Shown piece by piece: positions 20,863 to 58,700 of a stretch of DNA of 64,000 bases. Origin of the DNA: an uncultured Ruminococcus sp. (GTDB lineage Bacteria > Bacillota > Clostridia > Oscillospirales > Ruminococcaceae); NCBI GenBank assembly GCA_964540575.1, contig CAZINI010000010.1:42-64041 (forward strand), written 5' to 3'. Position 1 is the stretch's first letter. Every line of letters begins with the position of its first letter. The position numbers and the translations under genes are program-made. The notes under the pieces were generated by a model. It was not told the origin of the DNA. It made no database searches and worked only from the letters and a program-made list of their open reading frames with translations.

Positions 20863-21799
20863 ACAGGAATACATATCACATAAAACTTTTCCGAATTATG
20901 CGTTGATGAAAATATCCGCATATCATAAATCGCAAGGAGATACCGTTGAATGGTGGCTGCCGTTATTGCAATATGACATAGTGTATTCCAGCAAGATATT
21001 CGATTTCACTCCCGAAAATCCCTATTTGCCGCCTGATACTATAAAAGGCGGGACGGGCTATGATGTACACTCTGTTCTCCCGCCGGAAATAGATGATATG
21101 TTTCCCGATTACAGCATTTATCCCGAATGTGATTATGCGATAGGATTTATAACAAGAGGTTGTCCGAACAAATGCCGATGGTGTGTCGTTCCCGAAAAAG
21201 AGGGTAATATAAAGCCTTATAGGGAATGGCGGCAGCTTATACGATCCGACAGCGACAAGCTGGTACTTATGGATAACAATATTCTTGCAAGCGACTTCGG
21301 CATAGCACAGCTTGAGAATATGATTGGCAGCGGATATAAAATCGACCTGAATCAGGGAATGGACGCACGTCTTGTGACCGATGAAATAGCGGAGATACTG
21401 TCAAAGCTTTCTTGGATAAGGCATATTCGCTTTAGCTGTGACAGTATTCCTCAGATAGATGCTATTATTTCGGCAGCGGAAAAGCTTATGAAATATGGAG
21501 TCCGTCCTTACAGGCTGTTTGTTTATCTGCTTGTCACAAAGGATATTGATAATGCTGCATATCGTGTTGAGCAATTAAAAAGGCTTACGGGCATTAATAT
21601 CTATGCTCAGGCGGAGCGGAACACAAGAATGAATATCATTCCAAATGCAGAACAGCTTGAATTTGCTCAAAGATATGTTTACAGCGGGCGTTTCAGGCAG
21701 GAAACTTGGTATGAATACCGGGAAAGGATTTTTATAAAGAAATTCCCCAGTGGGGAAATCATAAGGAGTGGTCAGTATGACAATAAAAGAATTCTGTGA
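20828..21799 (+). CDS. radical SAM enzyme (unassigned subfamily)
   Basis: 323-aa ORF with a CxxxCxxC cluster (GCPNKCRWCVVPE). The last 20 aa (KKFPSGEIIRSGQYDNKRIL) read through palindrome P2 and overlap the next gene. Confidence 0.7.
   Translation: MKMKRIALHDSEQEYISHKTFPNYALMKISAYHKSQGDTVEWWLPLLQYDIVYSSKIFDFTPENPYLPPDTIKGGTGYDVHSVLPPEIDDMFPDYSIYPECDYAIGFITRGCPNKCRWCVVPEKEGNIKPYREWRQLIRSDSDKLVLMDNNILASDFGIAQLENMIGSGYKIDLNQGMDARLVTDEIAEILSKLSWIRHIRFSCDSIPQIDAIISAAEKLMKYGVRPYRLFVYLLVTKDIDNAAYRVEQLKRLTGINIYAQAERNTRMNIIPNAEQLEFAQRYVYSGRFRQETWYEYRERIFIKKFPSGEIIRSGQYDNKRIL
21741..21759. repeat. palindrome copy P2 (AATTCCCC-AGT-GGGGAAAT)
   Basis: Read directly. 17-nt gap to ATG 21777; lies inside the 3' tail of the radical SAM ORF. 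Confidence 0.9.
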
Positions 21800-23081
21800 G
21801 AAATACAATAAGGACGAGAAGAATGTTCGTGCAAAGGTTTTTCGCTATAAGAACGAGCTGAAAGACCACATAAGCAAAACGCCGTACACAAAAACATTGA
21901 ACCTTGATGATTATGCGGTGGAGTTTTTGCTTGAAGATCGGAGAGGTCGGTATAATCAAGATATTCCCGAACAGCCGACAGAGGAAGATACAACTGTGCG
22001 TCCGAACGATGTGGATATGTTTCCTCATTGGAGTGCGGAGAAGAAGCGGAGAGTAATGGATATATGCTTTCGAGAGGTAAAAAAATATTGGTACAGCTTG
22101 CGGTACATACCCGATGAATTTAAAACATATGAGCTATGCAAATATGCGGTTGAGAATCAGGGTCTTGCTTTGGAATATGTGCCTAAGTGGTTTGTTACGC
22201 AAGAAATATGCGATATAGCGGTGAAGGAAAACGGTATTGCATTGGCGTATGTTCCCGAAAAATATATGACCAAAGAAATGGTTAAAATTGCTTTTGATAA
22301 CTGTGCGAGTATGCAAAAGCGAGTAAAAAGGTATATGATGACTATTGATGAAATGGACGCAGACGACCATCTGCTCAAATATGTACCCGACAGATTTATT
22401 GATAAAGATATATGTCTGAAAGCACTTGTTTACTGTGCAAGCAATGCACAATACATTCCGCCAAAATATATGGAAGATGAAGCAATGATTTCCGAAGCAA
22501 ATAAGGATATTGTAAGCAGGAAATATATACCTAAATGGTATTGGACAAAGGAGCACGTTATCGAAACCATAAAGAAATACACTGACGATAAAAGATTTAA
22601 CGGGCTGGTAGGAATTCCGAGAGAAGCTTTTGATTATGATTTCTATCTGGAGCTGATAGAATCCAAGCTGATAAATCCCGAAGATGTATATCAGAGTGAA
22701 TATTATTCGGAAATATTGAGTGCTTCGGAAAAGAACAGTATTCGTCAGATCGACATTGATAGGTATAATCGTTCCGAGGAATTATATGGTCTTGTTCAGA
22801 AGGACTCGAACAATATCAGACTTATCCCGCTTGATGATGAAAGATATGAAACATATGCTACATTGGCAGTATGCAAATGCGGAGAAACTCTGAAATACAT
22901 ACCCGTTGAAAGGCGTGACTTTGATTTGTGTAGAGCTGCTATAGAAGATGATCCGAATGCGATGCGGTATGTTCCCGATGAATTTAAGGAACAGATAGTG
23001 GAGGAAATCAAGCATCGTACAAATTGGCTCAGATATTTGTTTGACGATGGGTATTTCTCGGATATTTTATCTGAGATGTAA
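21777..23081 (+). CDS. DUF4116 repeat protein
   Basis: Repeated (L/A)xYVP(D/E)x(F/Y)xTxE(I/M)Cxx(A/V) units (ALEYVPKWFVTQEICDIAV, LAYVPEKYMTKEMVKIAF, LKYVPDRFIDKDICLKAL, MRYVPDEFKEQ). ATG 21777 is 8 nt after AAGGAG. Confidence 0.7.
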   Translation: MTIKEFCEKYNKDEKNVRAKVFRYKNELKDHISKTPYTKTLNLDDYAVEFLLEDRRGRYNQDIPEQPTEEDTTVRPNDVDMFPHWSAEKKRRVMDICFREVKKYWYSLRYIPDEFKTYELCKYAVENQGLALEYVPKWFVTQEICDIAVKENGIALAYVPEKYMTKEMVKIAFDNCASMQKRVKRYMMTIDEMDADDHLLKYVPDRFIDKDICLKALVYCASNAQYIPPKYMEDEAMISEANKDIVSRKYIPKWYWTKEHVIETIKKYTDDKRFNGLVGIPREAFDYDFYLELIESKLINPEDVYQSEYYSEILSASEKNSIRQIDIDRYNRSEELYGLVQKDSNNIRLIPLDDERYETYATLAVCKCGETLKYIPVERRDFDLCRAAIEDDPNAMRYVPDEFKEQIVEEIKHRTNWLRYLFDDGYFSDILSEM

Positions 23082-23086
23082 TGAAA

Positions 23087-23105
23087 AATTCCCCACCGGG
23101 GAATT
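23087..23105. repeat. palindrome copy P3 (AATTCCCC-ACC-GGGGAATT)
   Basis: Read directly. 5 nt after the stop at 23081 and a 16-nt gap to ATG 23122. Confidence 0.95.
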
Positions 23106-23121
23106 GGAGAGGAAGGTCATT

Positions 23122-23568
23122 ATGAATAACATTGAAGAACTGTACAAATTTCATAAAAATGTGGTATTATGGGTAGAGGAGATGATACTGAGAAATGAAC
23201 TTCGGCTGCGTGATGTTCCCGGTGAAATACGGCGAACATCAAAGCTGATTTACATAGCGGCATTTAGGGCAAGCAGAAGTGTATCCTGCTTTAGGTTTAT
23301 TTCTGATTTGCAGGTGCTCTGTGAAGATATTGCTCTTCTGCCCGATACCGATAAAAAAAGAAAATCGGAACTGATAGCTCTTCTCAGTGATACTCTCCAA
23401 TTAAGTGATTATAAGGGTGATGAACGCTTTGAAGCTTTTAAAAAGGATATGGACGAAGATGTTTTGCGAGAATTGCACAGCTATGAATATGCTCACGGAA
23501 AGCAATTGCAAGCTATGCTCAGAGAATACCGAACTAAAAATGGAATTAAGGGAATTTCAAAAGGTTGA
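23122..23568 (+). CDS. hypothetical protein
   Basis: 148-aa ORF behind GGAGAGGAAGG. Confidence 0.5.
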   Translation: MNNIEELYKFHKNVVLWVEEMILRNELRLRDVPGEIRRTSKLIYIAAFRASRSVSCFRFISDLQVLCEDIALLPDTDKKRKSELIALLSDTLQLSDYKGDERFEAFKKDMDEDVLRELHSYEYAHGKQLQAMLREYRTKNGIKGISKG

Positions 23569-23995
23569 AGGTCTTAACGAAACTTCTGAACAGATATTAT
23601 GTATTCGGACACATTGCAATAATCACATTTGTATAACCGCAGCGGCGAAATATGATTATAAAAATGCTGTTTCGGCGATAGATTTCAAGCTTTACAAATT
23701 GGACAATTTCGGTGATATTTCACAGGCTTGCATTGGAAGGTCATTCTGCAAAATTAACGGAAGTGTTTTCTGCATTGCCGATATTGGCATTGAGGAGCAA
23801 TATCGTAATAACGGTTACGGTTCATTGCTTCTGTCGGAAATCATTAAATATGCAGAGCAACTTAATGTGACGAAAATAAAGGGAAGAGTCTATTATGGTG
23901 ATGTTAAAGAAAATGAAGCTAAAGATCGGCTTTATCATTTTTATGAAGAGCACGGCTTTGTTATAGATGAAGGAAGGCTGACCTTATGTCTGTGA
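23540..23995 (+). CDS. GNAT-family acetyltransferase (start uncertain)
   Basis: The C-terminal half has the acetyl-CoA motif IEEQYRNNGYGSLLLSEIIKYAEQ and YEEHGF. The track ORF starts at 23405; Met at 23540 minimises overlap with the upstream gene. Confidence 0.55.
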   Translation: MELREFQKVEGLNETSEQILCIRTHCNNHICITAAAKYDYKNAVSAIDFKLYKLDNFGDISQACIGRSFCKINGSVFCIADIGIEEQYRNNGYGSLLLSEIIKYAEQLNVTKIKGRVYYGDVKENEAKDRLYHFYEEHGFVIDEGRLTLCL

Positions 23996-24004
23996 CAAAA
24001 TAAA

Positions 24005-24021
24005 AATTCCCCACCGGGGAA
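24005..24021. repeat. palindrome copy P4 (AATTCCCC-ACC-GGGGAA)
   Basis: Read directly. 9 nt after the stop at 23995 and a 19-nt gap to ATG 24041. Confidence 0.95.
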
Positions 24022-24040
24022 CAGAAAGGAAACTGTGAAA

Positions 24041-25078
24041 ATGGAAAACCTTGATAAAATCTACGAAATCTGTATAAAACATCTGGAGGAATATCCAAGT
24101 GCGATAGAGTATGTCCCAGAACAGTATCTGACCGAGGAGCTGTGCATAGCAGCGTTAAATAGTAAACGGATGCGTTGGGGTTACGAAGCAAAGGAAATAT
24201 GGGAGCATATACCGATGGACAAGCTTACTCCGAAAGTATGTGAAGCTGCTGCTTGCAATAACAAGTATACGCTGGAGCATATTCCCGACAGCTGCAAAAC
24301 ATCAAAGGTGTTCTTTGAAGCGGTAAGAAGCTTTGGATATTTGCTGAAGGTCGTTCCGATAGCTTTTCACAGCAAGGAAATGTACATAAATTCCGTTTCG
24401 CAGAACGGCGGCAATCTTGAATATGTACCCGCAGAGAAACGTTCGGAGGAGATTTGCAAGGCTGCTTTCAATGCCAAGTATAACGGAGGAGCGGCGGTTG
24501 AATTTATCCCGGATAAGTATCTGACAGAAGATATGTGCCTTTCGGCTGTTTGCTCCGACGGAAAGCTGCTTGATGTTATCCCTACACATTACAAAACAGC
24601 CGAGATGTGTTTATCCGCATTGAAGCACAGCAGTTGGGTGACAATATGTGGGAACAGCAAATCAGCTGATAAGGCATTTTCTGATTATGTCAAGAAACAT
24701 ATCCCCGCAAAGGTGTCCGAGGAAGTATGTGAACGCTTTAATGAATACTTATCTTGGATCAACAAAGATAAAAATCAGGAAAACGAATGGAGAAGGCTTG
24801 TATCGGAAAATCCTCTTTACATAAAGAACATTCCCGAAGAAAAGAGGAGCAGCAATATATGCGAAATAGCAATAAAGCAGGAAGGACTTACGTTGAAATA
24901 CGTTCCCGAAAGGTATAGGAGCTTGCTTTATTGCCAATGGGCAGTGCTGAATAATCCCGATGCTCTTTTATATGTTCCCGAAGAAATGCGAAAAGAGGTG
25001 ATAACTTATGTTAAGGAAAGCTGTCAGTATGTAGGCGTTCTGTTTGGAAACAGCCCTTACAAAGAATACTTTTTATGA
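24041..25078 (+). CDS. DUF4116 repeat protein (second copy)
   Basis: Repeats AIEYVPEQYLTEELCIAAL, LEHIPDSCKTSKVFFEAV, LEYVPAEKRSEEICKAAF, VEFIPDKYLTEDMCLSAV, LKYVPERYRSLLYCQWAV. Confidence 0.7.
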   Translation: MENLDKIYEICIKHLEEYPSAIEYVPEQYLTEELCIAALNSKRMRWGYEAKEIWEHIPMDKLTPKVCEAAACNNKYTLEHIPDSCKTSKVFFEAVRSFGYLLKVVPIAFHSKEMYINSVSQNGGNLEYVPAEKRSEEICKAAFNAKYNGGAAVEFIPDKYLTEDMCLSAVCSDGKLLDVIPTHYKTAEMCLSALKHSSWVTICGNSKSADKAFSDYVKKHIPAKVSEEVCERFNEYLSWINKDKNQENEWRRLVSENPLYIKNIPEEKRSSNICEIAIKQEGLTLKYVPERYRSLLYCQWAVLNNPDALLYVPEEMRKEVITYVKESCQYVGVLFGNSPYKEYFL

Positions 25079-25096
25079 TAATGGAAGGTGAATGAT

Positions 25097-25858
25097 ATGG
25101 CTTTTTTGGAAAAGTTTGACTTGCTTGACGATGATTTGAAATTACAGTATAATTCCCCGGTGGGGAATTGCAATGCCGAGAATGGAGGTACGAAAAAGAT
25201 GAAAGAACACAATGATTATTTTACGGAAGAAAAGTACAAAGAGATGTATGAATTGGCAAACAAGAGGGTAGATGGGCTTCGTGCTATGGCTGAGAATATT
25301 ATCTCGGGTGATAAAAAAATAATAGTTGATATAAAGACTACAAATTGGATGTTTAGCGGGACAGTTGCACCTAAAGCCGAGCTCCTGTGGCTGACGATAA
25401 TTGATACCGACGGAAATGTGCTGTATGACAGTGCATTGGCACCACATGAATATGAATTTAATCAGGATTTCAGGAGATTATCCAAAAGAACAGGAATAGA
25501 TTTTGACCGGCTGTCAAGTGCTCCGACGTTGAGAAATCAGCTCTATAAGATAAATGAGATACTACTTTCTGCAAAAGCTATTATAGGATACTCTGTTGGG
25601 AAGATTATGGGGTATCTCAGACAGTCGGGCTGTGTGTGGCGTTCCGATTGTGAGCTTGGTAGTCTGGATAAAGCGTTTGAGGATACTATCGCCGAAATTA
25701 CAGATAAAAGAAATGCCACACTTGAAGAATGTGCGGCATTTTGGGAATATGAATGGCAGAATGAAGGAACCGAACACAGTACACTTGATAACTGCCGTGC
25801 GATCCTGCATTGCTATAACAGAATGATCGAGGAGAGATTTGAACTTGACGACTATTGA
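25097..25858 (+). CDS. DEDD-exonuclease-like protein with degenerate catalytic motifs (start uncertain)
   Basis: Same fold pattern as 19679-20593, but Exo I reads VDIKTTNW (E replaced by K), Exo II reads GYSVGKIMGYL (no Asp), and Exo III reads EHSTLDNCRAI. An alternative start at ATG 25199 behind GGAGGT would put palindrome P5 in the 5' UTR. Confidence 0.5.
   Translation: MAFLEKFDLLDDDLKLQYNSPVGNCNAENGGTKKMKEHNDYFTEEKYKEMYELANKRVDGLRAMAENIISGDKKIIVDIKTTNWMFSGTVAPKAELLWLTIIDTDGNVLYDSALAPHEYEFNQDFRRLSKRTGIDFDRLSSAPTLRNQLYKINEILLSAKAIIGYSVGKIMGYLRQSGCVWRSDCELGSLDKAFEDTIAEITDKRNATLEECAAFWEYEWQNEGTEHSTLDNCRAILHCYNRMIEERFELDDY
25151..25169. repeat. palindrome copy P5 (AATTCCCC-GGT-GGGGAATT)
   Basis: Read directly. 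Translated as NSPVGN if the CDS starts at 25097. Confidence 0.95.
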
Positions 25859-25887
25859 CTGTTTCTTATCGAAAGAAAAAATCCACC

Positions 25888-26103
25888 TTATTCGCCCTTA
25901 TCTTGTTTTTCGAGATATTGGTAGTATTCTTCCAAGCATTTCCATACATAGTTTTTGAGGACGGCTCCCGGGGTGGTCTTGTTGATGGCACACCACTTCT
26001 TGAAATCGTCCGCTTCCTCCGTCCTCATACGGCAGCTGACCGAACGCATATTTTCCTTGTCCCATTTGCGGGCGTATTGCTTTTGTTTTTCCGATACAGG
26101 CAT
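25888..26103 (-). CDS. small ribbon-helix-helix-like DNA-binding protein (tentative)
   Basis: 71-aa basic ORF behind AGGAGG, divergent from the 26299 operon. Its promoter region carries inverted repeats. Confidence 0.45.
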   Translation of the reverse strand: MPVSEKQKQYARKWDKENMRSVSCRMRTEEADDFKKWCAINKTTPGAVLKNYVWKCLEEYYQYLEKQDKGE

Positions 26104-26116
26104 ATTATCAATCCTC

Positions 26117-26230
26117 CTATCAACAGTATATCACATATTTTATACTGTTGATAGTGACATTGTGTACAAACTTGCTGTTAAAAGTTTGTTTATATTTACT
26201 ATTGCAAAATACTGTTGACAGTAGTATAAT
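26117..26230. promoter_or_regulatory. operator inverted repeat plus consensus promoter
   Basis: CTATCAACAGTATA (26117-26130) and TATACTGTTGATAG (26141-26154) are perfect inverted repeats. A third half-site ATACTGTTGACAG (26209-26221) lies between TTGCAA (26202-26207) and TATAAT (26225-26230), which have a 17-nt spacer. Confidence 0.6.
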
Positions 26231-26254
26231 GTTATTGTAAGGAAAAAACAAAAC

Positions 26255-26272
26255 ATTCCCCGATGGGGAATT
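26255..26272. repeat. palindrome copy P6 (ATTCCCC-GAT-GGGGAATT)
   Basis: Read directly. Sits in the 5' leader between the promoter at 26202-26230 and ATG 26299. Confidence 0.95.
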
Positions 26273-26298
26273 GAAATCATTCAGATGGAGGGGTAAAT

Positions 26299-26625
26299 AT
26301 GGCAGCAGTTATCTTGTTATTGCCAATCAAGCTTTTGGGAAAGGCTATGTGTCACATAGCCGCAGCGGTTTTCGGAGCGGCGGGTTTTCTGATAGCATTG
26401 GCGGGAGCACTAACTCAGCGTGTGGGAGCGTTTATCGGAGGATTATGTTTGCTGTCTGTGATAGCCGCACTCATATTCCAAGCAGGGACGTCATTTATGC
26501 TTGCTGCCGCTGCTGCCGGAGTTGCGTTGATTTTATCTCCCTTTATTGTTATTGCAATAGCGGGAGTTATGTATGCGATTAGAGAAGCACTGCTCAATAT
26601 ATCGGAAGAAATCGACTTATACTAA
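26299..26625 (+). CDS. small membrane protein (3 TM)
   Basis: 108-aa hydrophobic ORF behind GGAGGGG. Confidence 0.55.
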   Translation: MAAVILLLPIKLLGKAMCHIAAAVFGAAGFLIALAGALTQRVGAFIGGLCLLSVIAALIFQAGTSFMLAAAAAGVALILSPFIVIAIAGVMYAIREALLNISEEIDLY

Positions 26626-26745
26626 ACACCATTAGAATTATGGAGAAGAAATCGCTGCAAAATCTTGCATATATGGATTTTGTGGCGAGAGATTCCCATA
26701 ATTCAATGAGTGTTTGGTATTATACCGTAACAGGAGGTAAATGTT

Positions 26746-27021
26746 ATGTCAGAAACACCGGAAGAAAAGCTCAAAGTGCTGCAAGCTTTTATGAATGCAA
26801 AGGCTGATTACGCTGCTCAGGAAGAGGAACGCAAACGGAGAAGGTCGGAGAATTTCAGGAAGGCAAGAGAGGAGCGGCAGAGAGAAGAAGCCCGTAAGGC
26901 AGCCGAGGAAGAATACCGCAGAACACACCCGTTGACCGAGGAAGAACGTGAGGAACGCCGACGGCAATACAAGGAGCTTCTTAAGTCGGTCAGCGGAAAG
27001 AATAAGAAAGGAGAAAACTGA
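26746..27021 (+). CDS. highly charged coiled-coil protein
   Basis: 91-aa ORF behind AGGAGG. E/R/K-rich. Confidence 0.5.
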   Translation: MSETPEEKLKVLQAFMNAKADYAAQEEERKRRRSENFRKAREERQREEARKAAEEEYRRTHPLTEEEREERRRQYKELLKSVSGKNKKGEN

Positions 27022-27022
27022 T

Positions 27023-27427
27023 ATGTTAAGAATTTCTGATGAAGCTTATGAGAGAGTAAGCGATATTATGGAGGATATTGGCTATTGCTGTGATACCGAG
27101 GACGATTATAACGAGTGGGAGGATATTGCAGCTTCTTCCATCGGCAGTTTTATGGACGACCTTGACACGGAACAGTTCAAGATGACCTGTGAAGCTCTGA
27201 GGGAATACGTTGAGGATAAGTGCTATGCCGACAAGAATATGGCTATGGGCGTTAAGACGGCATTTGAGCGTTATCTCAGAGAACGTATTGACTATCTGGA
27301 CGGTTATGTTATCCCCAATGTAAATATGCAACTTGGCGATGACGAGGATTTTGAGGATACAAACACGGCAAGCTACAGAAAAGCTGTTGAAAAGCAGCTG
27401 GAGATAACACAGAATATGGATATGTGA
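27023..27427 (+). CDS. strongly acidic hypothetical protein
   Basis: 134-aa ORF behind AAAGGAGAA. D/E-rich, with a composition like DNA-mimic anti-restriction proteins, but no ArdA motif recognised. Confidence 0.5.
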   Translation: MLRISDEAYERVSDIMEDIGYCCDTEDDYNEWEDIAASSIGSFMDDLDTEQFKMTCEALREYVEDKCYADKNMAMGVKTAFERYLRERIDYLDGYVIPNVNMQLGDDEDFEDTNTASYRKAVEKQLEITQNMDM

Positions 27428-27455
27428 GCTGATTGAATGAAGGGAGATAATTAAA

Positions 27456-28257
27456 ATGTCAAAAATAATCGCAATAGCAAATCAGAAGGGCGGAGTAGGA
27501 AAGACAACCACCGCCGTAAATCTCGGCACAGCTCTGGAGCTTTCCGGCAGCAAGGTTCTGCTTATCGACCTTGACCCGCAGGCGAATATGTCTGCATATC
27601 TCGGATACGAGGACGATGGGAAGGCTACTATGAGCGACCTTGTAATGACCACAGCAAATAATTTTACTATGGGTGCTCAGAAGCGGACTATGCCCGCTAT
27701 GGACGAATGTATCCGTTACAGCGAAACAAACAAGGTGCATTTTATCCCATCGGACATAGGGCTTGCATATGCAGATGCTTGTATGATGCAGGCAGCAACA
27801 CGGGAGAGTGTACTGAAATTCATCCTGTCAGACAAGGCTGTGCAGGAATATGATTATATAATCATCGATTGTCTGCCATCTCTCGGAATACTGCTCATCA
27901 ATGCCCTAACTGCCGCAGACGGCGTTATCATTCCCGTTCAAACGCAGAAGTTTGCTCTTGACGGATTGGATATGCTCAGTGAGATATATTCACAGGTCAA
28001 GAATACAATAAACAGCAGGATTGATATTGTGGGTGTGCTCGCTACAATGGCGGATAATACAAATATCAGCAGGACAGTCATTGAAAAGCTCACTGACCGT
28101 TACGGCGAGAAAATGTTCGGGACATGCATACATACATAAGTCGGTGGAAGCTGCCAACAGCTCGGAGCGTATGAAATCGCTGTGCCTTAATAAGACAAAG
28201 CTGGGAGAGGAATACAAGGCTCTTGCCGCAGAGGTTAGCAAACGAATGAAGAAATAA
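27456..28257 (+). pseudogene. parA: ParA/Soj-family partition ATPase interrupted by a 1-nt frameshift
   Basis: Deviant Walker A (IANQKGGVGKTTTAVNLG) and DLDPQ. The frame ends FGTCIHT* at 28139, while the missing conserved C-terminus (KSVEAANSSERMKSL...YKALAAEV) continues in the +1 frame to 28257. Deleting one base near 28137 restores a normal ParA. Confidence 0.75.
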
Positions 28258-28274
28258 TTCCCCGGTGGGGAATT
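28256..28274. repeat. palindrome copy P7 (AATTCCCC-GGT-GGGGAATT)
   Basis: Read directly. Overlaps the stop of the parA C-terminal frame, with a 17-nt gap to ATG 28292. Confidence 0.95.
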
Positions 28275-29270: not shown

Positions 29271-29299
29271 TTGACATTTTCGTACTTATATGATATAAT
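29271..29299 (+). promoter_or_regulatory. consensus sigma-A promoter
   Basis: TTGACA (29271-29276), 17 nt, TATAAT (29294-29299). Confidence 0.6.
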
Positions 29300-30590: not shown

Positions 30591-30730
30591 TACAGGTAAT
30601 GCTTTTTGCGGCATTAGTGTTTGATTATTTATCTCTGTAGTGTGAACTGCAATCATTATATATAATTCTTTTCAAAAAGTTAAGGTTTTATTAAAAAATG
30701 AACACGAAATGAATTTGAGTGTCGTTTTTA

Positions 30731-30785
30731 GTAACATTCAGATACATTCAGATACATTCAGTAACATTCAGTAACATTCAGATAT
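30731..30785 (+). repeat. 10-bp tandem repeat array (5.5 units)
   Basis: GTAACATTCA GATACATTCA GATACATTCA GTAACATTCA GTAACATTCA GATAT. Exact helical-turn periodicity, about 40-100 bp upstream of the T4SS operon -10 element. Confidence 0.9.
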
Positions 30786-30798
30786 ACCTAGCCGAAAT

Positions 30799-41207: not shown

Positions 41208-43742
41208 ATGGCTCATCCTGATAAGAAGAAATATGTTTTGCAAACCGACAGAGCGGCTTACACTCAGAAAAAATATACCGTTAAGCGGACAAAAACACAA
41301 AATTCCCCACCGGGGAATTTTACGAAAGGCACGATAGGCGGAGATATTCCCAAAGGGCAGGGCGATACGAAAAAAAGCGGTACATTACTTAAGAAGATAT
41401 TTAAGGAAAACAGCGATAAGAAAGAAGCTTCGGAACAGACTCAGCATAAAAAAGCCGCATATATCCAAGATAATATTCAGAATGATGCGGCTGCTTCATA
41501 TGCGGAGCAGTATAGTGATACCGCTTTGGAAGAGTCTGTTTCACCGAAAGAAGAGCAGGATCTCTCCACGGGAAAGACGGAAGAAAAGCCGATACATAAT
41601 GCAAAATCGGACAGCATTGTTCCCAATAAAAATGACATATCCTCCGATAAAGCGGAGCAGATGAAAAGGGCGGCATTTATCAAAGCAAAGCTGCAAAAGA
41701 ACATTGCAGCAGCACAGATGAAAAGCACATATTACGAACAAAACGAAGAAGCTTGCGACAGGGTACATTCAGCTTCAAAGAGTAAGGACAATACTCCTTC
41801 ATATGTTGCGTCAAAAATGGAGGGCGTAACAAATGAGAATGCAGCTTCCACCGAAAGACGTTATCTCGGAAACAGCGAAAGCATTTCCGAAAACAAGCAT
41901 AAAAACAGCCTTGATAATGCCGAGGTAAAAAAAGCATATAAGACAAAAATACTCGGAGAACAGCTGAACAGGCGGAGAGCCGCTGCGGATATGTACAGTC
42001 AGGCTAAGACCAATGCTGCCCTTATTTCAGCCGAAAAGGCAAAAGCAGCTGCAATGAAAAATGCGGAAGCAGATGCCAATGTGAGAGATAATGTTATTCC
42101 CGGTGTTGAAAAGGCGGCAGAATATATGTCTGCTGCCAAAGACGGTGATACAGCTAAAATCTTGTCCAAGTCTGCAAAGGATATTCTTAGAAAGCATTTG
42201 AGTGATGGTACAAACCAATTTCTTGATAAAGCCGGTATAGTATCGGGTGCAGTAAAAGAAAGCGATTCTGTCGGCGGAGCAGTGGCAAATGTAGGTGTTT
42301 CGCTGGCAGCAAACGCTATAAAGCAATCTGTAAGCTCTGCATTGAAAAAACCGCTTACAGATAAAAAAATAGAGGAACGGCTTGAAAAAAAGTTCCACTA
42401 TATAGACCGCAAAACCGATAAGCAAATGAGTCGCATCCAAGCTGAAAAACGTGAAGCTATGAACGGGAATATCAGCAAAAGCCTTGAAAAGAAGCTTGAC
42501 AAGATAGAGCGTAATCAAGAAAGATACAAGGAGAAACTCGCAAAACAGCAACAAGAATTACAGCGTAGGCAGCAGAAAAACATTTACATAAAGCACAACA
42601 GAAAAAATCCTGTTTTTGTCGGTGGGAGAGAAAAAGGCGGGACTTTAAGAAAGCTTGTAGGTAAAAAGAGCAGCCTATTGCTTATGGGAGGGGTTGCACC
42701 GATAATAATCATTATTGTGGTCATTGTATTGTTTTTGGCAGTGATTGGATCTGTGTTTGCTCCGATTGGATGGCTAAAAGGATTTCATCATTCCGATGAT
42801 GCACTTAATGACAGCGAAGAACACGAAGTAATGTGCGTTGAATATATGAAATTCAAAAAGCTTGTTACCGATAAAATCAGGGAAATAAACACAGAGATAA
42901 CCTTAGCCTGCGAAAAGGAAATGCAGTTTTATGAAAGTTCCAACGGAAGTGTTAGTGTTACAGCCAGCCCGTTTATTGTTGCGACCGAAAAATTCTGGGA
43001 ATATGATGATGATGATCGCAAACATATAACCGGAGCGTACATTCCATACAAAGGTTCGCATCCAAGCGAATGGAGCAGGAGTGCATATGAAACAATTGAA
43101 TATACAGACGTGAATGGTAACGAAAGAATTATTCCTCTTAAGCTTGCGATCGATGATTTTGATTTTGCCGAATTTTGTGTAAATTTCCAAGTGTGGTCGA
43201 TAAAATCAAAGTATCCCGATGACGATGTGCAGAACCATTCGGGTGAAATTTTCACCTTGAAAGTCGGCAAAATGACAGAGTTTTTCAACCGCACTATAGT
43301 ATGGAATAAGGGTATGTATCCCTTGTATACATATGCAAGAGATATTACGGCAGATGACTATAAAGGTGATGATGAAGCGGCTGAAAATGCTGTTATTGAT
43401 ACATTTAGGGACGTCGGTTATCACGCTTTAACACTCAACTGCCGCTGCATGAATTATCATTACGATAATTGCAAAGGTCATCAGGTCAAATTTTATAATC
43501 TCAATGTAGTACCGTTCGAGGATATATTGGAGGAGGACGGGCTTGAATTGAGCGAAAATGACAGGAAGTTTATAGAGGAGCTTACAAAATCAATGCAAAT
43601 ACTTGACAGTGAGATAGTTCCCGAAGTTATGGCAACCTATACGGGGACGTACTTCGATGAGCCTGAAGAAACGGAGGAGTCGGAAGAGTCGGAAACAACG
43701 GTTAGTTCAGCGGATACAGAGCCAACAGAAACAGGAGGATAA
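41208..43742 (+). CDS. large membrane-anchored T4SS-associated protein (CD1108-like position; no hydrolase motif seen)
   Basis: 844-aa ORF. K/A-rich low-complexity N-terminal half, one TM (VAPIIIIIVVIVLFLAVIGSVF), Cys-containing C-terminal domain, acidic tail. Contains palindrome P8 in frame. Confidence 0.5.
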   Translation: MAHPDKKKYVLQTDRAAYTQKKYTVKRTKTQNSPPGNFTKGTIGGDIPKGQGDTKKSGTLLKKIFKENSDKKEASEQTQHKKAAYIQDNIQNDAAASYAEQYSDTALEESVSPKEEQDLSTGKTEEKPIHNAKSDSIVPNKNDISSDKAEQMKRAAFIKAKLQKNIAAAQMKSTYYEQNEEACDRVHSASKSKDNTPSYVASKMEGVTNENAASTERRYLGNSESISENKHKNSLDNAEVKKAYKTKILGEQLNRRRAAADMYSQAKTNAALISAEKAKAAAMKNAEADANVRDNVIPGVEKAAEYMSAAKDGDTAKILSKSAKDILRKHLSDGTNQFLDKAGIVSGAVKESDSVGGAVANVGVSLAANAIKQSVSSALKKPLTDKKIEERLEKKFHYIDRKTDKQMSRIQAEKREAMNGNISKSLEKKLDKIERNQERYKEKLAKQQQELQRRQQKNIYIKHNRKNPVFVGGREKGGTLRKLVGKKSSLLLMGGVAPIIIIIVVIVLFLAVIGSVFAPIGWLKGFHHSDDALNDSEEHEVMCVEYMKFKKLVTDKIREINTEITLACEKEMQFYESSNGSVSVTASPFIVATEKFWEYDDDDRKHITGAYIPYKGSHPSEWSRSAYETIEYTDVNGNERIIPLKLAIDDFDFAEFCVNFQVWSIKSKYPDDDVQNHSGEIFTLKVGKMTEFFNRTIVWNKGMYPLYTYARDITADDYKGDDEAAENAVIDTFRDVGYHALTLNCRCMNYHYDNCKGHQVKFYNLNVVPFEDILEEDGLELSENDRKFIEELTKSMQILDSEIVPEVMATYTGTYFDEPEETEESEESETTVSSADTEPTETGG
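41301..41319. repeat. palindrome copy P8 (AATTCCCC-ACC-GGGGAATT)
   Basis: Read directly. Translated as NSPPGN at residues about 32-37 of ORF 41208-43742. Confidence 0.95.
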
Positions 43743-44710: not shown

Positions 44711-47080
44711 ATGAAACTTATAATCAGTGAAAAGCCGTCCACCGCAAGAACGATAGCTCACGCAGTGGGTGCAAGAGAAAAGATTTACGGTGAGGGAAAA
44801 GAGTATTGCTATAAAGGCAATGACTTTTTCGTTGTAAATGCGAGGGGACACCTTTACGGGCTGGGAATGCCGCAGGACTATGGGTACAGCAAGACTTACA
44901 AAATGGACGAGCTGCCTATGTTCCCCGAATTTGAGCTTTACCCCGAAGGCGAAGATACGGAAAATCTCCGTAATCTCATTGCATCGCTTATAAACCGTCC
45001 CGATGTGGACGAGCTTATCTGTGCGACCGATGCGGGACGTGAGGGAGAGCTTATTTTCCGTCATATTTATAACGCCAACAAATGCACAAAGCCCGTAAAA
45101 CGTCTTTGGACAAACTCAATGACGGACGAAGCTATTACAAAATGTATGGCAAATCTCCCGCCCGACAGCGATTTTGACGGAGAATATTATGCCGCACTTG
45201 CAAGGGAAAAATCCGATTGGATAATCGGAATGAACCTGTCCCGTCTTTATGGTATAAAGGATAACTACACTCACCGTATCGGACGTGTAAAAACTCCCGT
45301 TCTTGCCCTTATCGTTGACCGTGACAACGAGATAGACAGATTTGAAAAGGTGACTACATATCGCCTTGAAATGGAAAACGGTGCGGTATCGGAACAGATA
45401 TATACCTCAAAGGAAGAAGCCGAAAATGCAAGGGATAAATGCAGCGGAAAAGCTGTAAGTGTGCTGTCGGCAGTAATCGATGAGAAGCATATAAACAGAC
45501 CGCTGCTTCACAGCTTGACAACTCTCCAACAGGAAGCAAATAAGGTGTATGGCTTGACTGCAAAGCAGACACTTGAAGCTGCTCAGAGCCTTTATGAGAA
45601 CAAGCTGACGACCTATCCCCGTACCGATTGCAATTACGTTTCCGAGGATATGAGAGAACAACTTATCCGTGTGGTAAGCTGCATCGGAGAACGTTCCGAA
45701 TATGCGGACAGAGTAAACGGGCTGAACGCTGTGGGGCTTAATCTTGACGGCAGAGTTATAAACGACAAGGCAATGAGCGGTCACGATCATCACGCCATTA
45801 TCCCCGAAGCAAGCACAGCAAGCCTTGACAGCCTTTCCGACACGGAACGCAAGGTATACGGTCTTATCGTAAACCGACTGCTTTGTATTGCAGATAAACA
45901 GTATAGCTTCACCGAAACCAACTATACATTCTTTTGCGAAGATATTACATTCAATCTGAAAAAAGAAGTAACAAAAGAAATGGGCTGGAAGCAGTATGAT
46001 ACCGAACTTAAAAAATCGGAAAATTCCCCGGTGGGGAAAAATTCCCCGATGGGGAATTATGTAGAAGGAGAAACTTTCACAGCGGATAACATTTCCGTCA
46101 AGGAATGTGTTACCAAACCGCCCAAGCATTACACAGACGCAAGTTTGCTGTCGGTTATGAACAATATCGACAACAGAATAGACGATAAAGAACTGAAAGC
46201 AGCTGTAAGCGGCAAAGGCATTGGTACCGAAGCTACCAGAGCTGACATTATTGAGCAGCTAATTGCCGCAAAATATGCAGAGCGTAAGGATAAAAACATT
46301 ATTGCCACGGAATTTGGCAGAACCTTTATCGCTTCTATCCCCGATAACGTAAAATCTGTTGAGCGTACTGCGGAATGGGAACAGGTTTTTACCAACATAA
46401 AGGAAAAGGGCATTTCAGCCGAGCCTTTTATGGAAGATATAAAGGAATTTGTCCGTTCTGTCATTTGCTTTGAAAACAGCCCCACACGGCAGAGAACACC
46501 CGTTAATGTTCCCGAAGGCGGCAGTCAGCAGAGAACGGCAATAGGTATTTGCCCCCGATGCGGAAAGAATATTTACGAGGGTAAAATGAATTTCTACTGT
46601 GAAAGCGGCAAGGACGGCTGTGGCTTTACCTTGTGGAAGGAACCTAAATTTTTCAAGGACGTTATTTCTCCCGAAAAGGCTGAAAAGCTCATTGAGGGAA
46701 AAACGGTATCTTTAAAGGCTGAGAGCAAGGACGGAAAAATATATTCTGCCGACTACAAATTGAATGATACGGGAAAGTATGTAAATCTTGAACGTATCAA
46801 GACGGAAAAAGAAGTCATCGGAAAATGTCCGAGGTGCGGAAAGAATGTTTACGAGGGCAAGTTGAATTTCTACTGTGAAAGCGGAAAGGACGGCTGCGGT
46901 TTTGCGATTTGGAAGGAGGACAAGTACAACGGTATAACCGTTACCGCACAGAACGCAAAGGAACTGCTTGAGGGCAAGAGTATTGTCAAGACAAAAAAGA
47001 AATTATCGGGAGAAAACGTTCGTGAGCGTTACAAACTGAAGGATACGGGTAAATATATAAATCTTGAAAAGGAGCAGTAA
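44711..47080 (+). CDS. topB: DNA topoisomerase III with two C-terminal zinc-ribbon repeats
   Basis: Toprim N-terminus (MKLIISEKPS...), DAGREGELIFRH, TTYPRTDC active-site Tyr context, and two copies of CPRCGKN(I/V)YEGK(M/L)NFYCESGKDGCGF. Carries the tandem palindrome in frame. Confidence 0.9.
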   Translation: MKLIISEKPSTARTIAHAVGAREKIYGEGKEYCYKGNDFFVVNARGHLYGLGMPQDYGYSKTYKMDELPMFPEFELYPEGEDTENLRNLIASLINRPDVDELICATDAGREGELIFRHIYNANKCTKPVKRLWTNSMTDEAITKCMANLPPDSDFDGEYYAALAREKSDWIIGMNLSRLYGIKDNYTHRIGRVKTPVLALIVDRDNEIDRFEKVTTYRLEMENGAVSEQIYTSKEEAENARDKCSGKAVSVLSAVIDEKHINRPLLHSLTTLQQEANKVYGLTAKQTLEAAQSLYENKLTTYPRTDCNYVSEDMREQLIRVVSCIGERSEYADRVNGLNAVGLNLDGRVINDKAMSGHDHHAIIPEASTASLDSLSDTERKVYGLIVNRLLCIADKQYSFTETNYTFFCEDITFNLKKEVTKEMGWKQYDTELKKSENSPVGKNSPMGNYVEGETFTADNISVKECVTKPPKHYTDASLLSVMNNIDNRIDDKELKAAVSGKGIGTEATRADIIEQLIAAKYAERKDKNIIATEFGRTFIASIPDNVKSVERTAEWEQVFTNIKEKGISAEPFMEDIKEFVRSVICFENSPTRQRTPVNVPEGGSQQRTAIGICPRCGKNIYEGKMNFYCESGKDGCGFTLWKEPKFFKDVISPEKAEKLIEGKTVSLKAESKDGKIYSADYKLNDTGKYVNLERIKTEKEVIGKCPRCGKNVYEGKLNFYCESGKDGCGFAIWKEDKYNGITVTAQNAKELLEGKSIVKTKKKLSGENVRERYKLKDTGKYINLEKEQ
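46022..46058. repeat. palindrome copy P9 (tandem: AATTCCCC-GGT-GGGGAA + AATTCCCC-GAT-GGGGAATT)
   Basis: Read directly. In frame in topB as NSPVGKNSPMGN. The 43-nt block 46019-46061 is identical to 59494-59536. Confidence 0.95.
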
Positions 47081-50732: not shown

Positions 50733-50768
50733 AATTCCCCGGTGGGGAATTTTTCCCCGTTGGAAATT
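50733..50768. repeat. palindrome copy P11 (perfect AATTCCCC-GGT-GGGGAATT plus a degenerate second unit TTCCCC-GTT-GGAAATT)
   Basis: Read directly. 4 nt after the stop at 50728; the degenerate unit ends 16 nt before TTG 50785. Confidence 0.9.
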
Positions 50769-50784
50769 GAAAGGACTGATTGTT

Positions 50785-55700: not shown

Positions 55701-58700
55701 TGCACTTCTGGAGAGAAGCTATCCTTCGGTTGAAAATTACCTGATAAATGTAGTAAGTGACAGCAAGAACAGGGAAGATATGGCAGAGGACAGAGAAGCT
55801 GCACTAAAGGCTTTGCAGACCATTGAAGTGTTTAAGATTGGAATGGAAGAATTTCGTCCTATACATTTTGAACCTGTTGAGGAAACAAGCTATGCAGAGC
55901 AGCTTTATACAAGAGTAAATGACGAATACAGCTATTTTATCGGTCAGATAAAAAATGAAAGCCCTGATGTGCTTGTTCGTTCGGCTGCGGAAATAGCGGA
56001 TAAGGAAAAGATTACACAGTATATTATGGAGGGGACTGTTTCTCTTTTAGATAAACAGTATGAAGCTTTGCTGTCAAGACCAAATCCGCTTGATGAAATT
56101 TATGAGCAGTGGGTGCAAAACGGCGAACTGAGCAGCTTTGAAGATGTTGGTATCGCACTTGAAGAAGCAGCCGACCGTATTCTTGTTTCCCTTGACCGTG
56201 AAAACTCACGTTCCGAGGAAAAGGTCAATGCCGTACTTGCAGTTTCGCAGAATGATACTAGCAGATATTATGCTGCAAATAATGTTTCCGTTGATGATGT
56301 GAGAGAAGTTATTAAACACTCAGATATGCTGTTTATCGACCTTTGTGCACTTGGTGAAAAGCAGATAACGGAAGCTCAGTTTGCGGAGTATTCACAGAGA
56401 AACGGTGTTACTGCTGTTGATGTGGATATTGACGAGCAGACTATGCACGTTTACGGTGCGGATAAGCCTATTATTTCATTTGATGAAATAAAGGTGGATT
56501 TTGATGAAATAGCAAAGGCACTTGACCTTAAAAACAACACTATTACATTTTCTGTTGTTGCCATTGAAGGAGAAAAGCCCTTTATTATTGGCAGTTATAT
56601 CGACAAGGACGATATTACCGCACTCGAAGAATATCAGGATTATATCTATGATACGGGAAGAAAGAATATTGATGTTACCGTTGATTATTATACGATAGGT
56701 ATGGGAGATAATGAGTCGTATGGTGCCGATACCGATGAAAGGGACTATATTTTCGAACACCTTGATGAAGTGCTGAAATATAAATATACCGATCACCTTG
56801 AATCGGAAACATATTTTATTGCGACTCCCGCAGAACTGCTGGAAGAAATCAGCGGCGAAGCAGAAGAAAAGAACTATTTATTCACTGTTGCAGAATTTGA
56901 GGACGGCAGCAGATATGTTATCCCCGGTAAAATCGATGATAATAACATTAAGGAAACGGCAGCTTGGACGGAAGTTAAGAACAACAATTTTGACGTTGAC
57001 CGTATTACAGATCTTGACGAAGATATACGGGTGACATATACGGTATATCAGACAGGCAGCGGAGAAACCGTTTTGCCGACAGACGAGGAAACAGCAAGGA
57101 TCGAAGCTGCTCTTGATGAAATCTTATCCGATGCGGTTATGGTGACTTCTTTTGATTCATCTGTACGTCCTTGGGAAGATGTTGATGATGTCATTTTCAA
57201 AATGGAAGAAGTATGGAAAGAACGTCACGCAAAGGAAATGAATGTTTCCGATGGTTTTGACAACAGTAATTTCCTTTATCCCAATAATCTGATGAAAATC
57301 GCACACGACAGCGAGGGAAAAGACCATTATAATTTCGACGACGATGCTATCTTGCAGATAAAGCTTGCAGGAAGTGAATGGCTGCACCCTGTTGACGCTG
57401 CTGTTGAAATGAACCGCAGAGGTGTTGACATTAATGACATTGAAATGCTAAATGTGCGATATGTTTCCTCCGATGGTACTGTCGGAGAAAAGGATGTAAC
57501 TCCCGAACAATATATAGTTTACCTTGCTCACAGCGAAGAACGAACAAATGCTTTTCTGGCTGCGGTCGATGCAGCAGAGGAGCGGAAAAAGGTTCCCGAA
57601 GCAATGATGAATATCATTTATGATGATATGCCGTCATTTGTCAAGAGTGCTGTTGCTTGGGACGAGCTTATGGAATATGACGGTATATCGGAACAATTTG
57701 ATAAGGGTGAAGATCCCGTTGCGGTGGTAAAGCCTTATCTTGCAAATAATGGCACATTCTCTTGGAACGCAGATGAGCTGAAAAACGGATATTTTGATTG
57801 GTCTGTAAAGGATAATGGTGATACGGCAGATATTTCAATTTCCGTAAATGACAGCGACACGTTCAGAGAGAAGTATAATTCTCATTTTGAAGTGCCTTGG
57901 ACTGAACTTGCAGACGCATTTAAAAAGCGAATAGATCAGGAGATAAACTACAATAAAATCTCTGACGGAACGATTACTGTAACTGCCGTAGGTGAGGATA
58001 GGTTCAGATTTGTTGACAGAAGCAGAAATACGGAAGCGATTGAAAGCCGTGAACAGTTGATTGAACGTTTTACAGAAATGTTCAATAAAGCTGATTTGAA
58101 CGGTATCATTAGGTCTGTTATTGAGGAAGCTAAATTTGAAAAGATTGAAGTTGATAATAATTCCCCGGTGGGGAATTTGGACGGCGATGAGGAAAAGCAG
58201 ATAATTGACCTTTCCAAACTTTCAAAAATCACTCTTAATGATGAATATGAACGTGGAACGGATCAGCCCGATGATTTCCAATACATAAAAAATACTATCA
58301 CATTCAGCGACCTTAATTCGTCATTTCTTATACGCAGAAACAAGGAATTTACATATGACTATGATGTTCTGCCCGACCTTGACGAGGGTGATACATTCAT
58401 CACAAGACAGGGTATGCTAAAAGAAGTGCGGGATTTTCTGGAAGCAGCAAAAAGCGATTCGGATAAATCCATTTCCATTACCGATATGAACGGTAATACT
58501 ACTGTTCTGAAAGGCAGTCAATACGTCTTTGAAGCAACAGAGGACAGGCTTGCATTTATGATACCCGAGGTTGGCTATGCGGAAATGTTTGAACGTGATG
58601 ATGACAGCTATGATTACACGATTTATGACAGCGATTTCAAAGTTACAGACAGCGGAGTTTACGATGACGTAAGCATTACTCTACGTCAGGCATTTACTAT

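Follow-up and report, generated by a model that had tools for sequence, protein, structure and literature searches.

A dispersed 19-bp palindrome at cistron heads and in coding loops of a Ruminococcus integrative and conjugative element, and its possible recognition by a ParB-family protein

The palindrome and its genomic setting

In this report, we describe a short palindrome, AATTCCCC-RNY-GGGGAATT (R, purine; N, any base; Y, pyrimidine), that recurs at cistron heads and inside genes of an integrative and conjugative element (ICE) in a 64-kb stretch of DNA from an uncultured Ruminococcus sp. (contig CAZINI010000010.1, positions 42 to 64,041; hereafter the window), and we weigh the evidence that it may be a dispersed binding site for a ParB-family protein of that element. 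The ICE spans from ~9.4 kb to the window end and is integrated beside guaA (5938-7512). The palindrome is present 15 times in the window against approximately zero copies expected by chance, and all 15 copies lie inside the ICE, with TTCCCC-N3-GGGGAA cores starting at 10576, 21743, 23089, 24007, 25153, 26256, 28258, 41303, 46024, 46042, 48807, 50735, 58161, 59499 and 59517. This core usually carries AA and TT on its flanks, forming a 19-bp palindrome that is written in full as AATTCCCCGGTGGGGAATT and is referred to below as CCCC-type. A looser version of the pattern gave 35 matches in the window versus 1.44 expected, a number reached in none of 100 shuffles, and the half-site AATTCCCC matched 27 times versus 2.5 expected, just 4 of these matches falling outside full palindromes. 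Copies are spaced every 1-7 kb and are densest in the cassette region downstream of the relaxase gene, and the interval 28.3-41.3 kb contains none.

A first-pass annotation of this DNA had read the palindromes as punctuation between cistrons, set at a fixed distance upstream of start codons, and had proposed that they form a processing, stabilizing or insulating mRNA hairpin. All of the palindromes that it cited are present at their coordinates. The loci are listed here with their positions relative to open reading frames (ORFs):

P1, 10575..10591: ATTCCCCATTGGGGAAT, overlapping the final codons (FPNGE and the stop) of ORF 10573-11145 on the minus strand, and close upstream of the integrase ORF
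P2, 21741..21759, plus strand: 6-bp perfect stem, in the 3' end of a radical-SAM-like ORF, 17 nt before ATG 21777 (DUF4116 gene)
P3, 23087..23105, plus strand: 5 nt past the stop at 23081, 16 nt before ATG 23122
P4, 24005..24023 (core 24007-24021), plus strand: 9-11 nt past the stop at 23995, 19 nt before ATG 24041 (DUF4116 gene)
P5, 25151..25169, plus strand: in-frame (NSPVGN) in ORF 25097-25858, 29 nt before the internal ATG 25199
P6, 26254..26272, plus strand: in a 5' untranslated region, 26 nt before ATG 26299
P7, 28256..28274, plus strand: overlapping the parA stop codon, 17 nt before the parB ATG at 28292
41301..41319, plus strand: in-frame NSPPGN, amino acids 32-37 of the 844-aa ORF (41208) that follows VirB4
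46022..46058, plus strand: doublet with an 18-nt period, in-frame NSPVGKNSPMGN, amino acids 438-449, in a variable loop of topoisomerase III
P10, 48805..48823, plus strand: 0-2 nt past the stop at 48804, 18 nt before ATG 48842 (GGDEF gene)
P11 with a degenerate second unit, 50733..50772, plus strand: between the GGDEF stop (50728) and the primase TTG at 50785
58159..58177, plus strand: in-frame NSPVGN, amino acid 1798 of the 3393-aa polyvalent protein
59497..59533, plus strand: doublet, in-frame NSPVGK and NSPMGN, amino acids 2244-2255 of the polyvalent protein, at the N-terminal edge of its conserved methylase-helicase module

The genes around them, assigned by Pfam scans, are those of a conjugative element with a plasmid-like replication initiator and a set of accessory cassettes:

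9454-10566, minus strand: tyrosine integrase
11211-11555: CI-like helix-turn-helix (HTH) protein
13077-14135: Rep3 initiator, with probable iterons at 12813-12973
15874-16266: NikA/MobC-like protein
16276-17736: MobA/VirD2 relaxase
~19.7-25.9 kb: accessory cassettes (RNase_T exonuclease, radical-SAM-like protein, two DUF4116 proteins, GNAT)
27456-28257: ParA
28292-29257, plus strand: ParB-family protein with an N-terminal domain plus HTH, candidate binder of the palindrome
33932-36094: type IV coupling protein (T4CP)
38181-41186: VirB4
44058-44420: YoeB toxin
44711-47080: topoisomerase III (TopoIII)
48842-50728: GGDEF protein
50785-51996: DUF3991-Toprim primase
52768-62949: 3393-aa polyvalent protein (LPD, YodL, Eco57I-like methylase, ResIII helicase)

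Placement and conservation of the copies

The distances between palindrome ends and start codons reported by the first-pass annotation (17, 16, 19, 17, 18, 26 and 29 nt) were re-derived from the sequence and are correct, and a Shine-Dalgarno (SD)-like motif, and thus a putative ribosome-binding site (RBS), was found in each gap. Stop codons, said to lie 0-9 nt before several copies, were measured at 0-11 nt or overlapping the palindrome at P3, P4, P7, P10 and P11. The near-fixed spacing is kept in related elements. A cleaner rule for calling start codons was applied to 55 non-redundant copies from the window and ~40 related loci. Their cores end a median of 18 nt (interquartile range 17-23; mode 17 nt, 14 cases) short of the start codon and begin a median of 3 nt, in some cases as much as 372 nt, past the upstream stop codon. 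In eight cases with at least 74 nt of free non-coding DNA upstream, the start codon is still 16-17 nt (five cases) or 31-34 nt (three cases) away, and free stretches of over 100 nt leave the spacing in place, so anchoring to the RBS and start codon is genuine and does not reflect packing alone. The window also contains many palindrome-free intergenic gaps of 57-644 nt.

Relatives were drawn from matches in species genomes, from metagenome contigs retrieved with the ParB protein as query, and from contigs encoding TopoIII or T4CP homologues. Across 185,579 species genomes, multi-copy matches to the 19-mer were confined to contigs of Ruminococcus, Oscillospiraceae and Clostridia metagenome-assembled genomes, and tblastn identified these multi-copy contigs as relatives of the window ICE (40-90% protein identity). 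The family is abundant in gut Ruminococcaceae/Oscillospiraceae of humans and animals, with one topoisomerase cluster alone present on 248 contigs. A phage or plasmid origin was rejected, as PLSDB gave no near match and viral contigs carry the exact 19-mer only as chance singletons; host flanks contain no sites in the window or in L163. A literature search found no description of the motif or of its arrangement.

A simple ORF/SD heuristic, of whose long-ORF calls a few are spurious, places 48 of 103 non-redundant copies directly upstream of a start codon and 37 across long ORFs; the 18 elsewhere include sites between convergent genes or past terminators. The most conserved location across subfamilies is the site adjoining parA/parB: a copy follows parA in the window, L135, L136-149, L048, L059, L070 and L160, a copy lies between parA and parB in the window and at least six relatives, and in L156 a site falls within parB itself. 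A copy also stands behind the promoter of the operon starting at 26299 in the window, L048, L136-149, L150 and L160; in L136, for example, TTGATA-17-TATAAT is followed after 14 nt by the palindrome. Further conserved locations are the T4CP linker, the TopoIII loop and linkers of the polyvalent proteins, and the stem is unchanged across elements whose proteins are only 40-50% identical.

The head-of-cistron position is thus real, but punctuation between cistrons describes only part of the family, since about one-third of copies are in-frame inside ORFs. Five loci in the window lie inside ORFs and all are read in one frame. Family-wide, ~75% of in-ORF copies are read in the frame NSPxG(N/K) and ~20% as FPxGE. 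Exact palindromic codons are used by 35 of 36 NSPxGN-type peptides in long ORFs, which marks the peptide as a by-product of the DNA motif and rules out NSPxGN as a selected peptide such as a protease site; judged from these codons, in-ORF copies are selected at the nucleotide level. The motif, as read from the sequence, has no stop codon in any of its six frames, and its doublets repeat with a period of 18 nt. Occupancy of a given protein loop varies: the hypervariable loop of TopoIII has two sites in the window, P0002 and L057, one site in P0009, P0010, P0013, P0090 and L160, and none in P0003-P0008 and most others.

We further examined sequence constraint in 100 non-redundant copies, in which the 6+6 core TTCCCC/GGGGAA is constant by search definition and the two positions outside it are A/A and T/T in ~70-90%. 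Complementarity at the outer positions (30, 32, 22 and 25 observed versus 30, 32, 26 and 29 expected) is at chance level, indicating no selection for a longer stem; covariation beyond the 8-bp stem was absent from these copies, as were the compensatory changes with sequence drift that RNA hairpins would show. The centre is constrained: position 9 is a purine in 100 of 100 copies and position 11 a pyrimidine in 98, with A-N-T in 74, G-N-T in 18 and A-N-C in 6, and L168 has G-N-C in all four of its copies. Base pairing within a loop of 3 nt cannot account for this R-N-Y dyad rule; a homodimer bound to duplex DNA would be expected to meet half-sites that mirror each other right up to one central base. 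In RNA folding, the palindrome is predicted to form a hairpin of about -9 to -10 kcal/mol that leaves the SD unpaired, the fold z-scores of palindrome contexts are unremarkable, and Rfam has no match anywhere in the window.

Two of the window copies are close to predicted promoters. The 5' arm of P5 covers the -10 box of TTGACG-17-TATAAT (25125-25153; 11 of 12 positions match), and P6 lies 25 nt downstream of a predicted promoter at 26202-26230 (10 of 12). The idea that the palindromes are promoters in general was discarded, as promoter-like sites number 27 versus a background of 24.9 and none lies close to a copy other than P5 and P6. Read antisense, the palindromes resemble terminators because of their A-rich 5' flank, and they make up most of the 16 terminator-like sites in 20.5-30 kb (6.6 expected); the sense strand has no U-tract.

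Some relatives depart from this pattern. In L130-132, L161 and L162, whose parB region lies outside the retrieved contigs, sites are few and variant (TCAGTCCCCGGTGGGGACTGA, GTGCCCCAGTGGGGCAC). This palindrome-poor subfamily has other CCCC-N3-GGGG palindromes (L161 1989-2044 and 18001; L130 6704; L131 6611; L162 10825); GTGCCCCAGTGGGGCAC occurs twice, 39 nt apart, within a 226-aa HTH_ParB-like gene, and TCAGTCCCCGGTGGGGACTGA is in-frame in the homologue of ORF 41208. In L156 and L158, whose ParB proteins are 34-38% identical to that of the window, the 27-bp palindromes AACTTTTTCCCCAGTGGGGAAAAAGTT and AACTTCGTACCAATGTGGTACGAAGTT are found inside and just after parB (L156 10441-10467 and 10951-10977; L158 79-105 and 605-619), with the innermost pair changed from C:G to A:T on both arms between the two elements.

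Candidate binder, mosaic junctions and competing explanations

The protein encoded next to the best-conserved site belongs to the ParB family. Pfam ParB_N matches the window protein at 1e-19, a PDB sequence search matches Noc, ParB and KorB, and Foldseek matches the same three over both the N-terminal and the DNA-binding domain (~250 columns). Its AlphaFold2 model has a mean pLDDT of 78.5, rising to ~90 at the HTH, with helices predicted for residues 164-172 and 176-191. S175-K176-N177 form the start of the recognition helix; N177 is the second residue of helix 176-191, which follows a G-L-S turn. In Caulobacter ParB, G170-K171-S172 touch DNA and R173 is the specificity residue (PMC7383237); by motif alignment, N177 would adjoin this residue 173. 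Many ParB homologues are 510-540 aa long with a fused N-terminal Cys-rich domain (MQTYICKCG…), or have an RNA-polymerase alpha-C-terminal-domain-like domain (PF03118).

Site and protein vary together across subfamilies. L153, L154, L155 and L157 have only the form TTCGCC-N3-GGCGAA (AATTCGCC-N3-GGCGAATT; CGCC-type), in at least 12 copies and in the same contexts as CCCC copies (palindrome, aaggagg, ATG), and their ParB proteins are just 41-43% identical to that of the window. The fixed HTH difference in the ParB alignment is G-L-S-K-N in CCCC-type versus S-K-D in CGCC-type elements. A search for this ParB family gave 2224 hits; helix types were tabulated in 120 ParB homologues, and test contigs were chosen by helix sequence before their sites were seen. 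Two of these, P0203 (KKD) and P0221 (SKD), carry only CGCC-type sites plus one CACC/GGTG, and P0237, with an SRA helix, has neither CCCC nor CGCC sites. Taken together, Asn-type loci (LSKN/SRN) have 98 CCCC and 0 CGCC sites, and Asp-type loci (SKD/KKD) have 0 CCCC, 18 CGCC and 1 CACC; the Asp-type proteins fall in two clades of a neighbour-joining tree.

Palindromes also coincide with some of the boundaries at which related elements diverge. A comparison of eleven human-gut elements that are close relatives yielded 307 distinct homology-block ends. Of these, 15 are no more than 12 nt from a palindrome (3.3 expected), and 11 of the 15 are exactly at its first base (where blocks start) or last base (where blocks end). 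These junctions fall into at least three families: in one, the same upstream gene and palindrome are followed by differing cassettes, and in others a 279-aa gene and a 436-aa DUF4116 gene each stand behind a palindrome with differing neighbours. Most of the 307 breakpoints are away from palindromes, and several indels have just one palindrome edge. Individual loci show how such sites come and go. For example, the T4CP linker of the window has neither site nor insert, in L125 it has an in-frame palindrome followed by an LRR_5 module, and in L136 and L138 a palindrome, stop, SD and ATG split the gene in two. Similarly, the junction between a 103-aa gene and the GGDEF gene has a 37-nt gap in the window (stop, palindrome, SD), and in L130, L131 and L133 the stop is followed directly by the SD with a gap of 13-15 nt; given this difference between orthologous junctions, ~24-27 nt holding just the palindrome have been gained or lost.

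We tentatively favour, at somewhat less than an even chance, a reading in which the palindromes are KorB/Noc-like sites for the element's ParB-family protein that also serve as recombination joints. The palindrome would be a single 19-bp dyad-symmetric DNA site, with the half-site 5'-AATTC(C/G)CCR and one free central base, recognized sequence-specifically by a dimeric protein of the element; the likeliest binder would be the ParB-family HTH protein at 28292-29257, whose gene the best-conserved copy precedes. By analogy with KorB-OB, Noc-NBS and ParB-parS, dispersed sites may let the protein mark, partition and/or globally repress the ICE, partition concerning the Rep3-replicating excised form, and sites that overlap promoters or closely follow them (P5, P6), like those at cistron heads, may serve as operators or roadblocks. 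The recurrence of one 19-bp sequence at cistron heads could also provide portable homology for the exchange, insertion, fusion and splitting of modules, which would account for sites directly preceding the SD, for NSPxGN remnants read in-frame where domains meet, and for solo sites acquired at junctions of conserved genes. Tolerance may contribute, in that the only harmless places would be the gap between stop and SD and the loops or linkers that accept the Asn-Ser-Pro-x-Gly-Asn frame. Modules of site, SD and ORF would be inherited together and moved by recombination at identical sites, as with the T4-type promoter-early stem-loops (PeSLs; PMC2839356). The identity of the binder, the effect of binding and recombination at the sites are all deduced from comparison.

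Several known systems resemble parts of this arrangement. The IncP plasmid RK2 carries 12 OB sites, the operators of KorB. KorB is a ParB-family global repressor and partition protein whose operator palindromes are dispersed on the plasmid (PMC11790492), and the parallels are a ParB-fold protein of a mobile element (N-terminal domain plus HTH) with a partner ParA, a fold match that includes KorB itself, and an odd-length short palindrome found about a dozen times over a 50-60-kb conjugative element, both at promoters and at a distance from them. The window site differs in its length (19 versus 13 bp), its unrelated sequence, its Firmicutes host and the motif GHNR in place of GERR; neither anchoring to start codons (15-20 nt) nor the in-frame position of one-third of copies is known for OB sites, and no KorA-like partner was identified here. 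Noc-NBS and ParB-parS likewise pair a ParB-family HTH with a dyad-symmetric site, have many scattered sites, often within genes, and switch specificity via a few residues at or beside the start of the recognition helix (PMC7383237). Noc and ParB are also the best sequence and fold matches of the window protein, although NBS and parS are chromosomal palindromes of even length (14-16 bp), lack a central base and are unrelated to RBSs or cassette boundaries. The NBS half-site ATTTCCC resembles AATTCCCC. For dispersed sites of ParB-family proteins, it is unusual to be anchored to RBSs, to be read in-frame within genes and to coincide with mosaic junctions.

Several observations weigh against the KorB/Noc-like reading. 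The parS, NBS and OB sites are not anchored to RBSs, and here the anchoring holds even with free upstream DNA; together with the many long gaps that are empty, it means that position matters beyond a plain binding-site model. The explanation of this anchoring by tolerance and module inheritance appears weaker than the anatomical evidence, which makes an RNA-level role of the RBS-adjacent copies a serious rival. Isolated half-sites outside full palindromes are not enriched in the window. As ICE genes are co-inherited, the correlation between helix and site amounts to few independent events (2-3 lineages), and since loci with Thr-type helices (L167, L168) still have CCCC sites, residue 177 is no simple one-to-one code. 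Finally, AGHNRTNA, invariant in 25 homologues, stands in place of the CTP-binding motif GERRxRA; this replacement of GERR by GHNR makes a sliding-clamp mechanism doubtful, and the protein is not classed as a canonical CTPase ParB.

An RNA-level device, in which an 8-bp hairpin 5' of the SD stabilizes or defines 5' ends, insulates the RBS or couples stop and SD, is in our judgement unlikely. In its favour, anchoring to the start codon stays tight (median 18, mode 17 nt) even with free upstream DNA, the predicted hairpin leaves the SD unpaired, and the stop codon often abuts the 5' arm, bringing stop and SD to the base of the stem. Hairpins between cistrons at a regular position to downstream genes are familiar as T7 RNase III sites, REP (repetitive extragenic palindromic) stabilizers and Bacillus 5' stem-loop stabilizers. 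Those are defined by structure, variable in sequence and non-coding, and the RNase III ones are larger; the palindrome is invariant, short and partly coding, and its stem is too short for RNase III. The copies are not confined to untranslated intercistronic RNA: 37 of 103 run through long ORFs, mostly read as NSPxGN, and cutting the RNA or controlling translation would be pointless there; others lie past terminators or between convergent genes (L153 4557, L062 474, L071 1376). Furthermore, the fixed stem changes only in concert across a whole subfamily and not by covariation, the loop follows the dyad rule (R-N-Y / G-N-C), relatives manage with no palindrome at the orthologous GGDEF junction, and neither Rfam nor fold z-scores single out a structured RNA. 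Of the hairpin proposed by the first-pass annotation, the near-fixed 5' distance, the unpaired SD and the conservation of the arrangement in relatives stand, and copies inside essential or giant ORFs, invariant stem, loop dyad rule and concerted subfamily variant speak against it; its alternative, a protein operator controlling many cistrons, fits those four points better. A variant would have a sequence-specific RNA-binding protein, possibly the same HTH protein, control translation of many cistrons. There is precedent in Aca2/Aca1, HTH dimers of mobile elements that bind both an inverted repeat in promoter DNA and an RNA stem-loop beside the RBS (PMC13551039). Those proteins act at a single operon and belong to another family, and RNA binding here would be by analogy.

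A primary function in recombination, with palindromes as joints of cassette and domain shuffling by a site-specific enzyme or by template switching at hairpins of the single strand being transferred, seems improbable. The block ends exactly at palindrome edges favour it, as do the same upstream gene with differing cassettes after the palindrome and the same cassette with differing neighbours before it, the T4CP LRR module with a palindrome at its 5' edge, fused or split, the solo palindromes at otherwise conserved junctions, the stop-free frames and 18-nt period, and the conserved C-terminal module of the polyvalent protein that begins at a doublet. Most breakpoints, however, lie elsewhere, some indels have only one palindrome edge, mosaic junctions are expected for any conserved motif between variable segments, and the retention of syntenic copies while proteins diverged by 40-50% argues that a physiological role has been maintained. 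A centre of 1-3 bp is unlike the core sites of tyrosine or serine recombinases. Integron attC sites are similar in being palindromic and in lying between promoterless co-directional cassettes whose content varies among relatives, but they are 57-141 bp long, imperfect, 3' of their cassettes and recombined by IntI at attI; Pfam scans of the window showed no dedicated recombinase apart from the ICE integrase, its sole tyrosine recombinase, which lies 11 kb away, and the 19-bp sites are tied to the downstream gene. T4-type PeSLs come closer, as short stem-loop motifs upstream of small accessory genes in plastic regions, with insertion, deletion and replacement junctions between close relatives at the motif (PMC2839356). 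Unlike PeSLs, which combine a sigma-70 promoter with a terminator, the palindromes have no general promoter or sense-strand U-tract, also lie in-frame in proteins and co-vary with a DNA-binding protein. It is comparably doubtful that the palindrome is the joint of an undescribed module-exchange system of gut Clostridia ICEs, in which the GHNR ParB-like protein recognizes, and perhaps nicks or pairs, identical sites. Sites that are harmless anywhere (no stop in any frame, 18-nt period, loop-friendly NSPxGN) would there swap whole cistrons (palindrome, RBS and ORF) as well as in-frame protein domains, which would account for the assembly of giant polyvalent proteins and for split or fused T4CP genes, and the same sites may double as DNA operators and RBS-adjacent RNA hairpins.

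The chances are very slim that the palindromes are signals in conjugative single-stranded DNA, that is, transferred-strand hairpins for the DUF3991-Toprim primase or TopoIII, or structures resistant to single-stranded DNA-binding protein (SSB), that permit priming at many points. The element does encode primase and TopoIII, relatives encode SSB beside parA, the 1-7-kb spacing and the density downstream of the relaxase would suit such a role, and the concerted sequence change could reflect co-evolution with the primase zinc-finger. Start-codon anchoring and the central dyad rule are left unexplained, though, as are the empty 28.3-41.3 kb and the few or no copies in relatives with the same primase (L130-132), and known single-strand origins are much larger and orientation-specific. 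Least credible of all is a selfish miniature repeat, spreading and tolerated without function. Gain and loss of copies between close relatives and the absence of stop codons from every frame would fit, and in-frame insertion into protein loops recalls Rickettsia palindromic elements, which likewise occupy tolerant surface positions of coding genes. These are 100-150 bp long and genome-wide, and are tied neither to start codons nor to a binding protein of their own. The palindrome, at 19 bp, is far below the size of known mobile repeats, perfectly conserved in sequence, and retained by deeply diverged relatives downstream of parA and of the operon promoter; it is confined to one ICE family and partly in ORFs, not extragenic across the host genome as REPs are, and Pfam scans of the window revealed no RAYT/IS200-like gene.

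Should the KorB/Noc-like reading hold, these ICEs would have a KorB-like global control or partition circuit with sites in intercistronic junctions and coding loops, offering a handle on their silencing and maintenance, a natural specificity change in the ParB family (Asn/Asp with C:G/G:C) and a concrete mechanism for shuffling accessory, probably anti-defence, cassettes and polyvalent-protein domains. The motif is also a simple tag with which to find such elements and delimit their cassettes in metagenomes.

Other features of the element

Directly upstream of the Rep3 gene, seven 21-26-bp direct repeats (…AATT(A/G)CTCCTCACCTTT…; 12813-12973) are probably iterons of a plasmid-like origin within the ICE. 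Inverted repeats near mobC and the relaxase gene (15830-15877), considered as oriT-like (origin-of-transfer) hairpins, have unrelated sequence. Between a 71-aa ribbon-helix-helix (RHH)-like gene (25888-26103, minus strand) and ORF 26299, the divergent promoter region 26104-26250 contains the repeated motif TACTGTTGA / TCAACAGTA, one copy of which covers the -35 box and which recurs in L048 (6480-6520). This motif, distinct from the palindrome, probably serves the RHH protein as its operator. Judged from the sequence alone, with this different repeat TACTGTTGA in its promoter region, the RHH protein was set aside as a candidate binder of the palindrome. A tandem array of a 10-bp unit (TTCAGATACA / TTCAGTAACA) occupies 30727-30794, in a 337-nt gap before ORF 30864.

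The cassette region encodes paralogous DUF4116 repeat proteins (21777-23081 and 24041-25078) with common internal repeats (…YVPE…), and DUF4116 homologues stand behind palindromes in the human-gut elements L147, L148 and L151. Between parB and ORF 29315, at 29271-29299, a perfect sigma-70 consensus with TG extension (TTGACA-17-TATAAT) ranks as the strongest promoter predicted in 20.5-30 kb and has no palindrome beside it. The TopoIII frame is open for 90 codons (44441-44710) upstream of the likely start MKLIISEKP at 44711, so the mechanical ORF over-extends across the YoeB region on the opposite strand. An SSB gene, which the window lacks, lies beside parA/parB in L160 (3226-3651), L163 (2030-2434), L165 (7606-8028) and L166 (7039-7530), consistent with a leading-region-like block of early genes. 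In the window, parA is interrupted at 28120-28140 (TGCATACATACATAAG versus TGCATACATAAG in L160): a 4-nt duplication shifts the frame, and the ParA C-terminus runs on in another frame to 28257, reflecting either a pseudogene or an assembly error.

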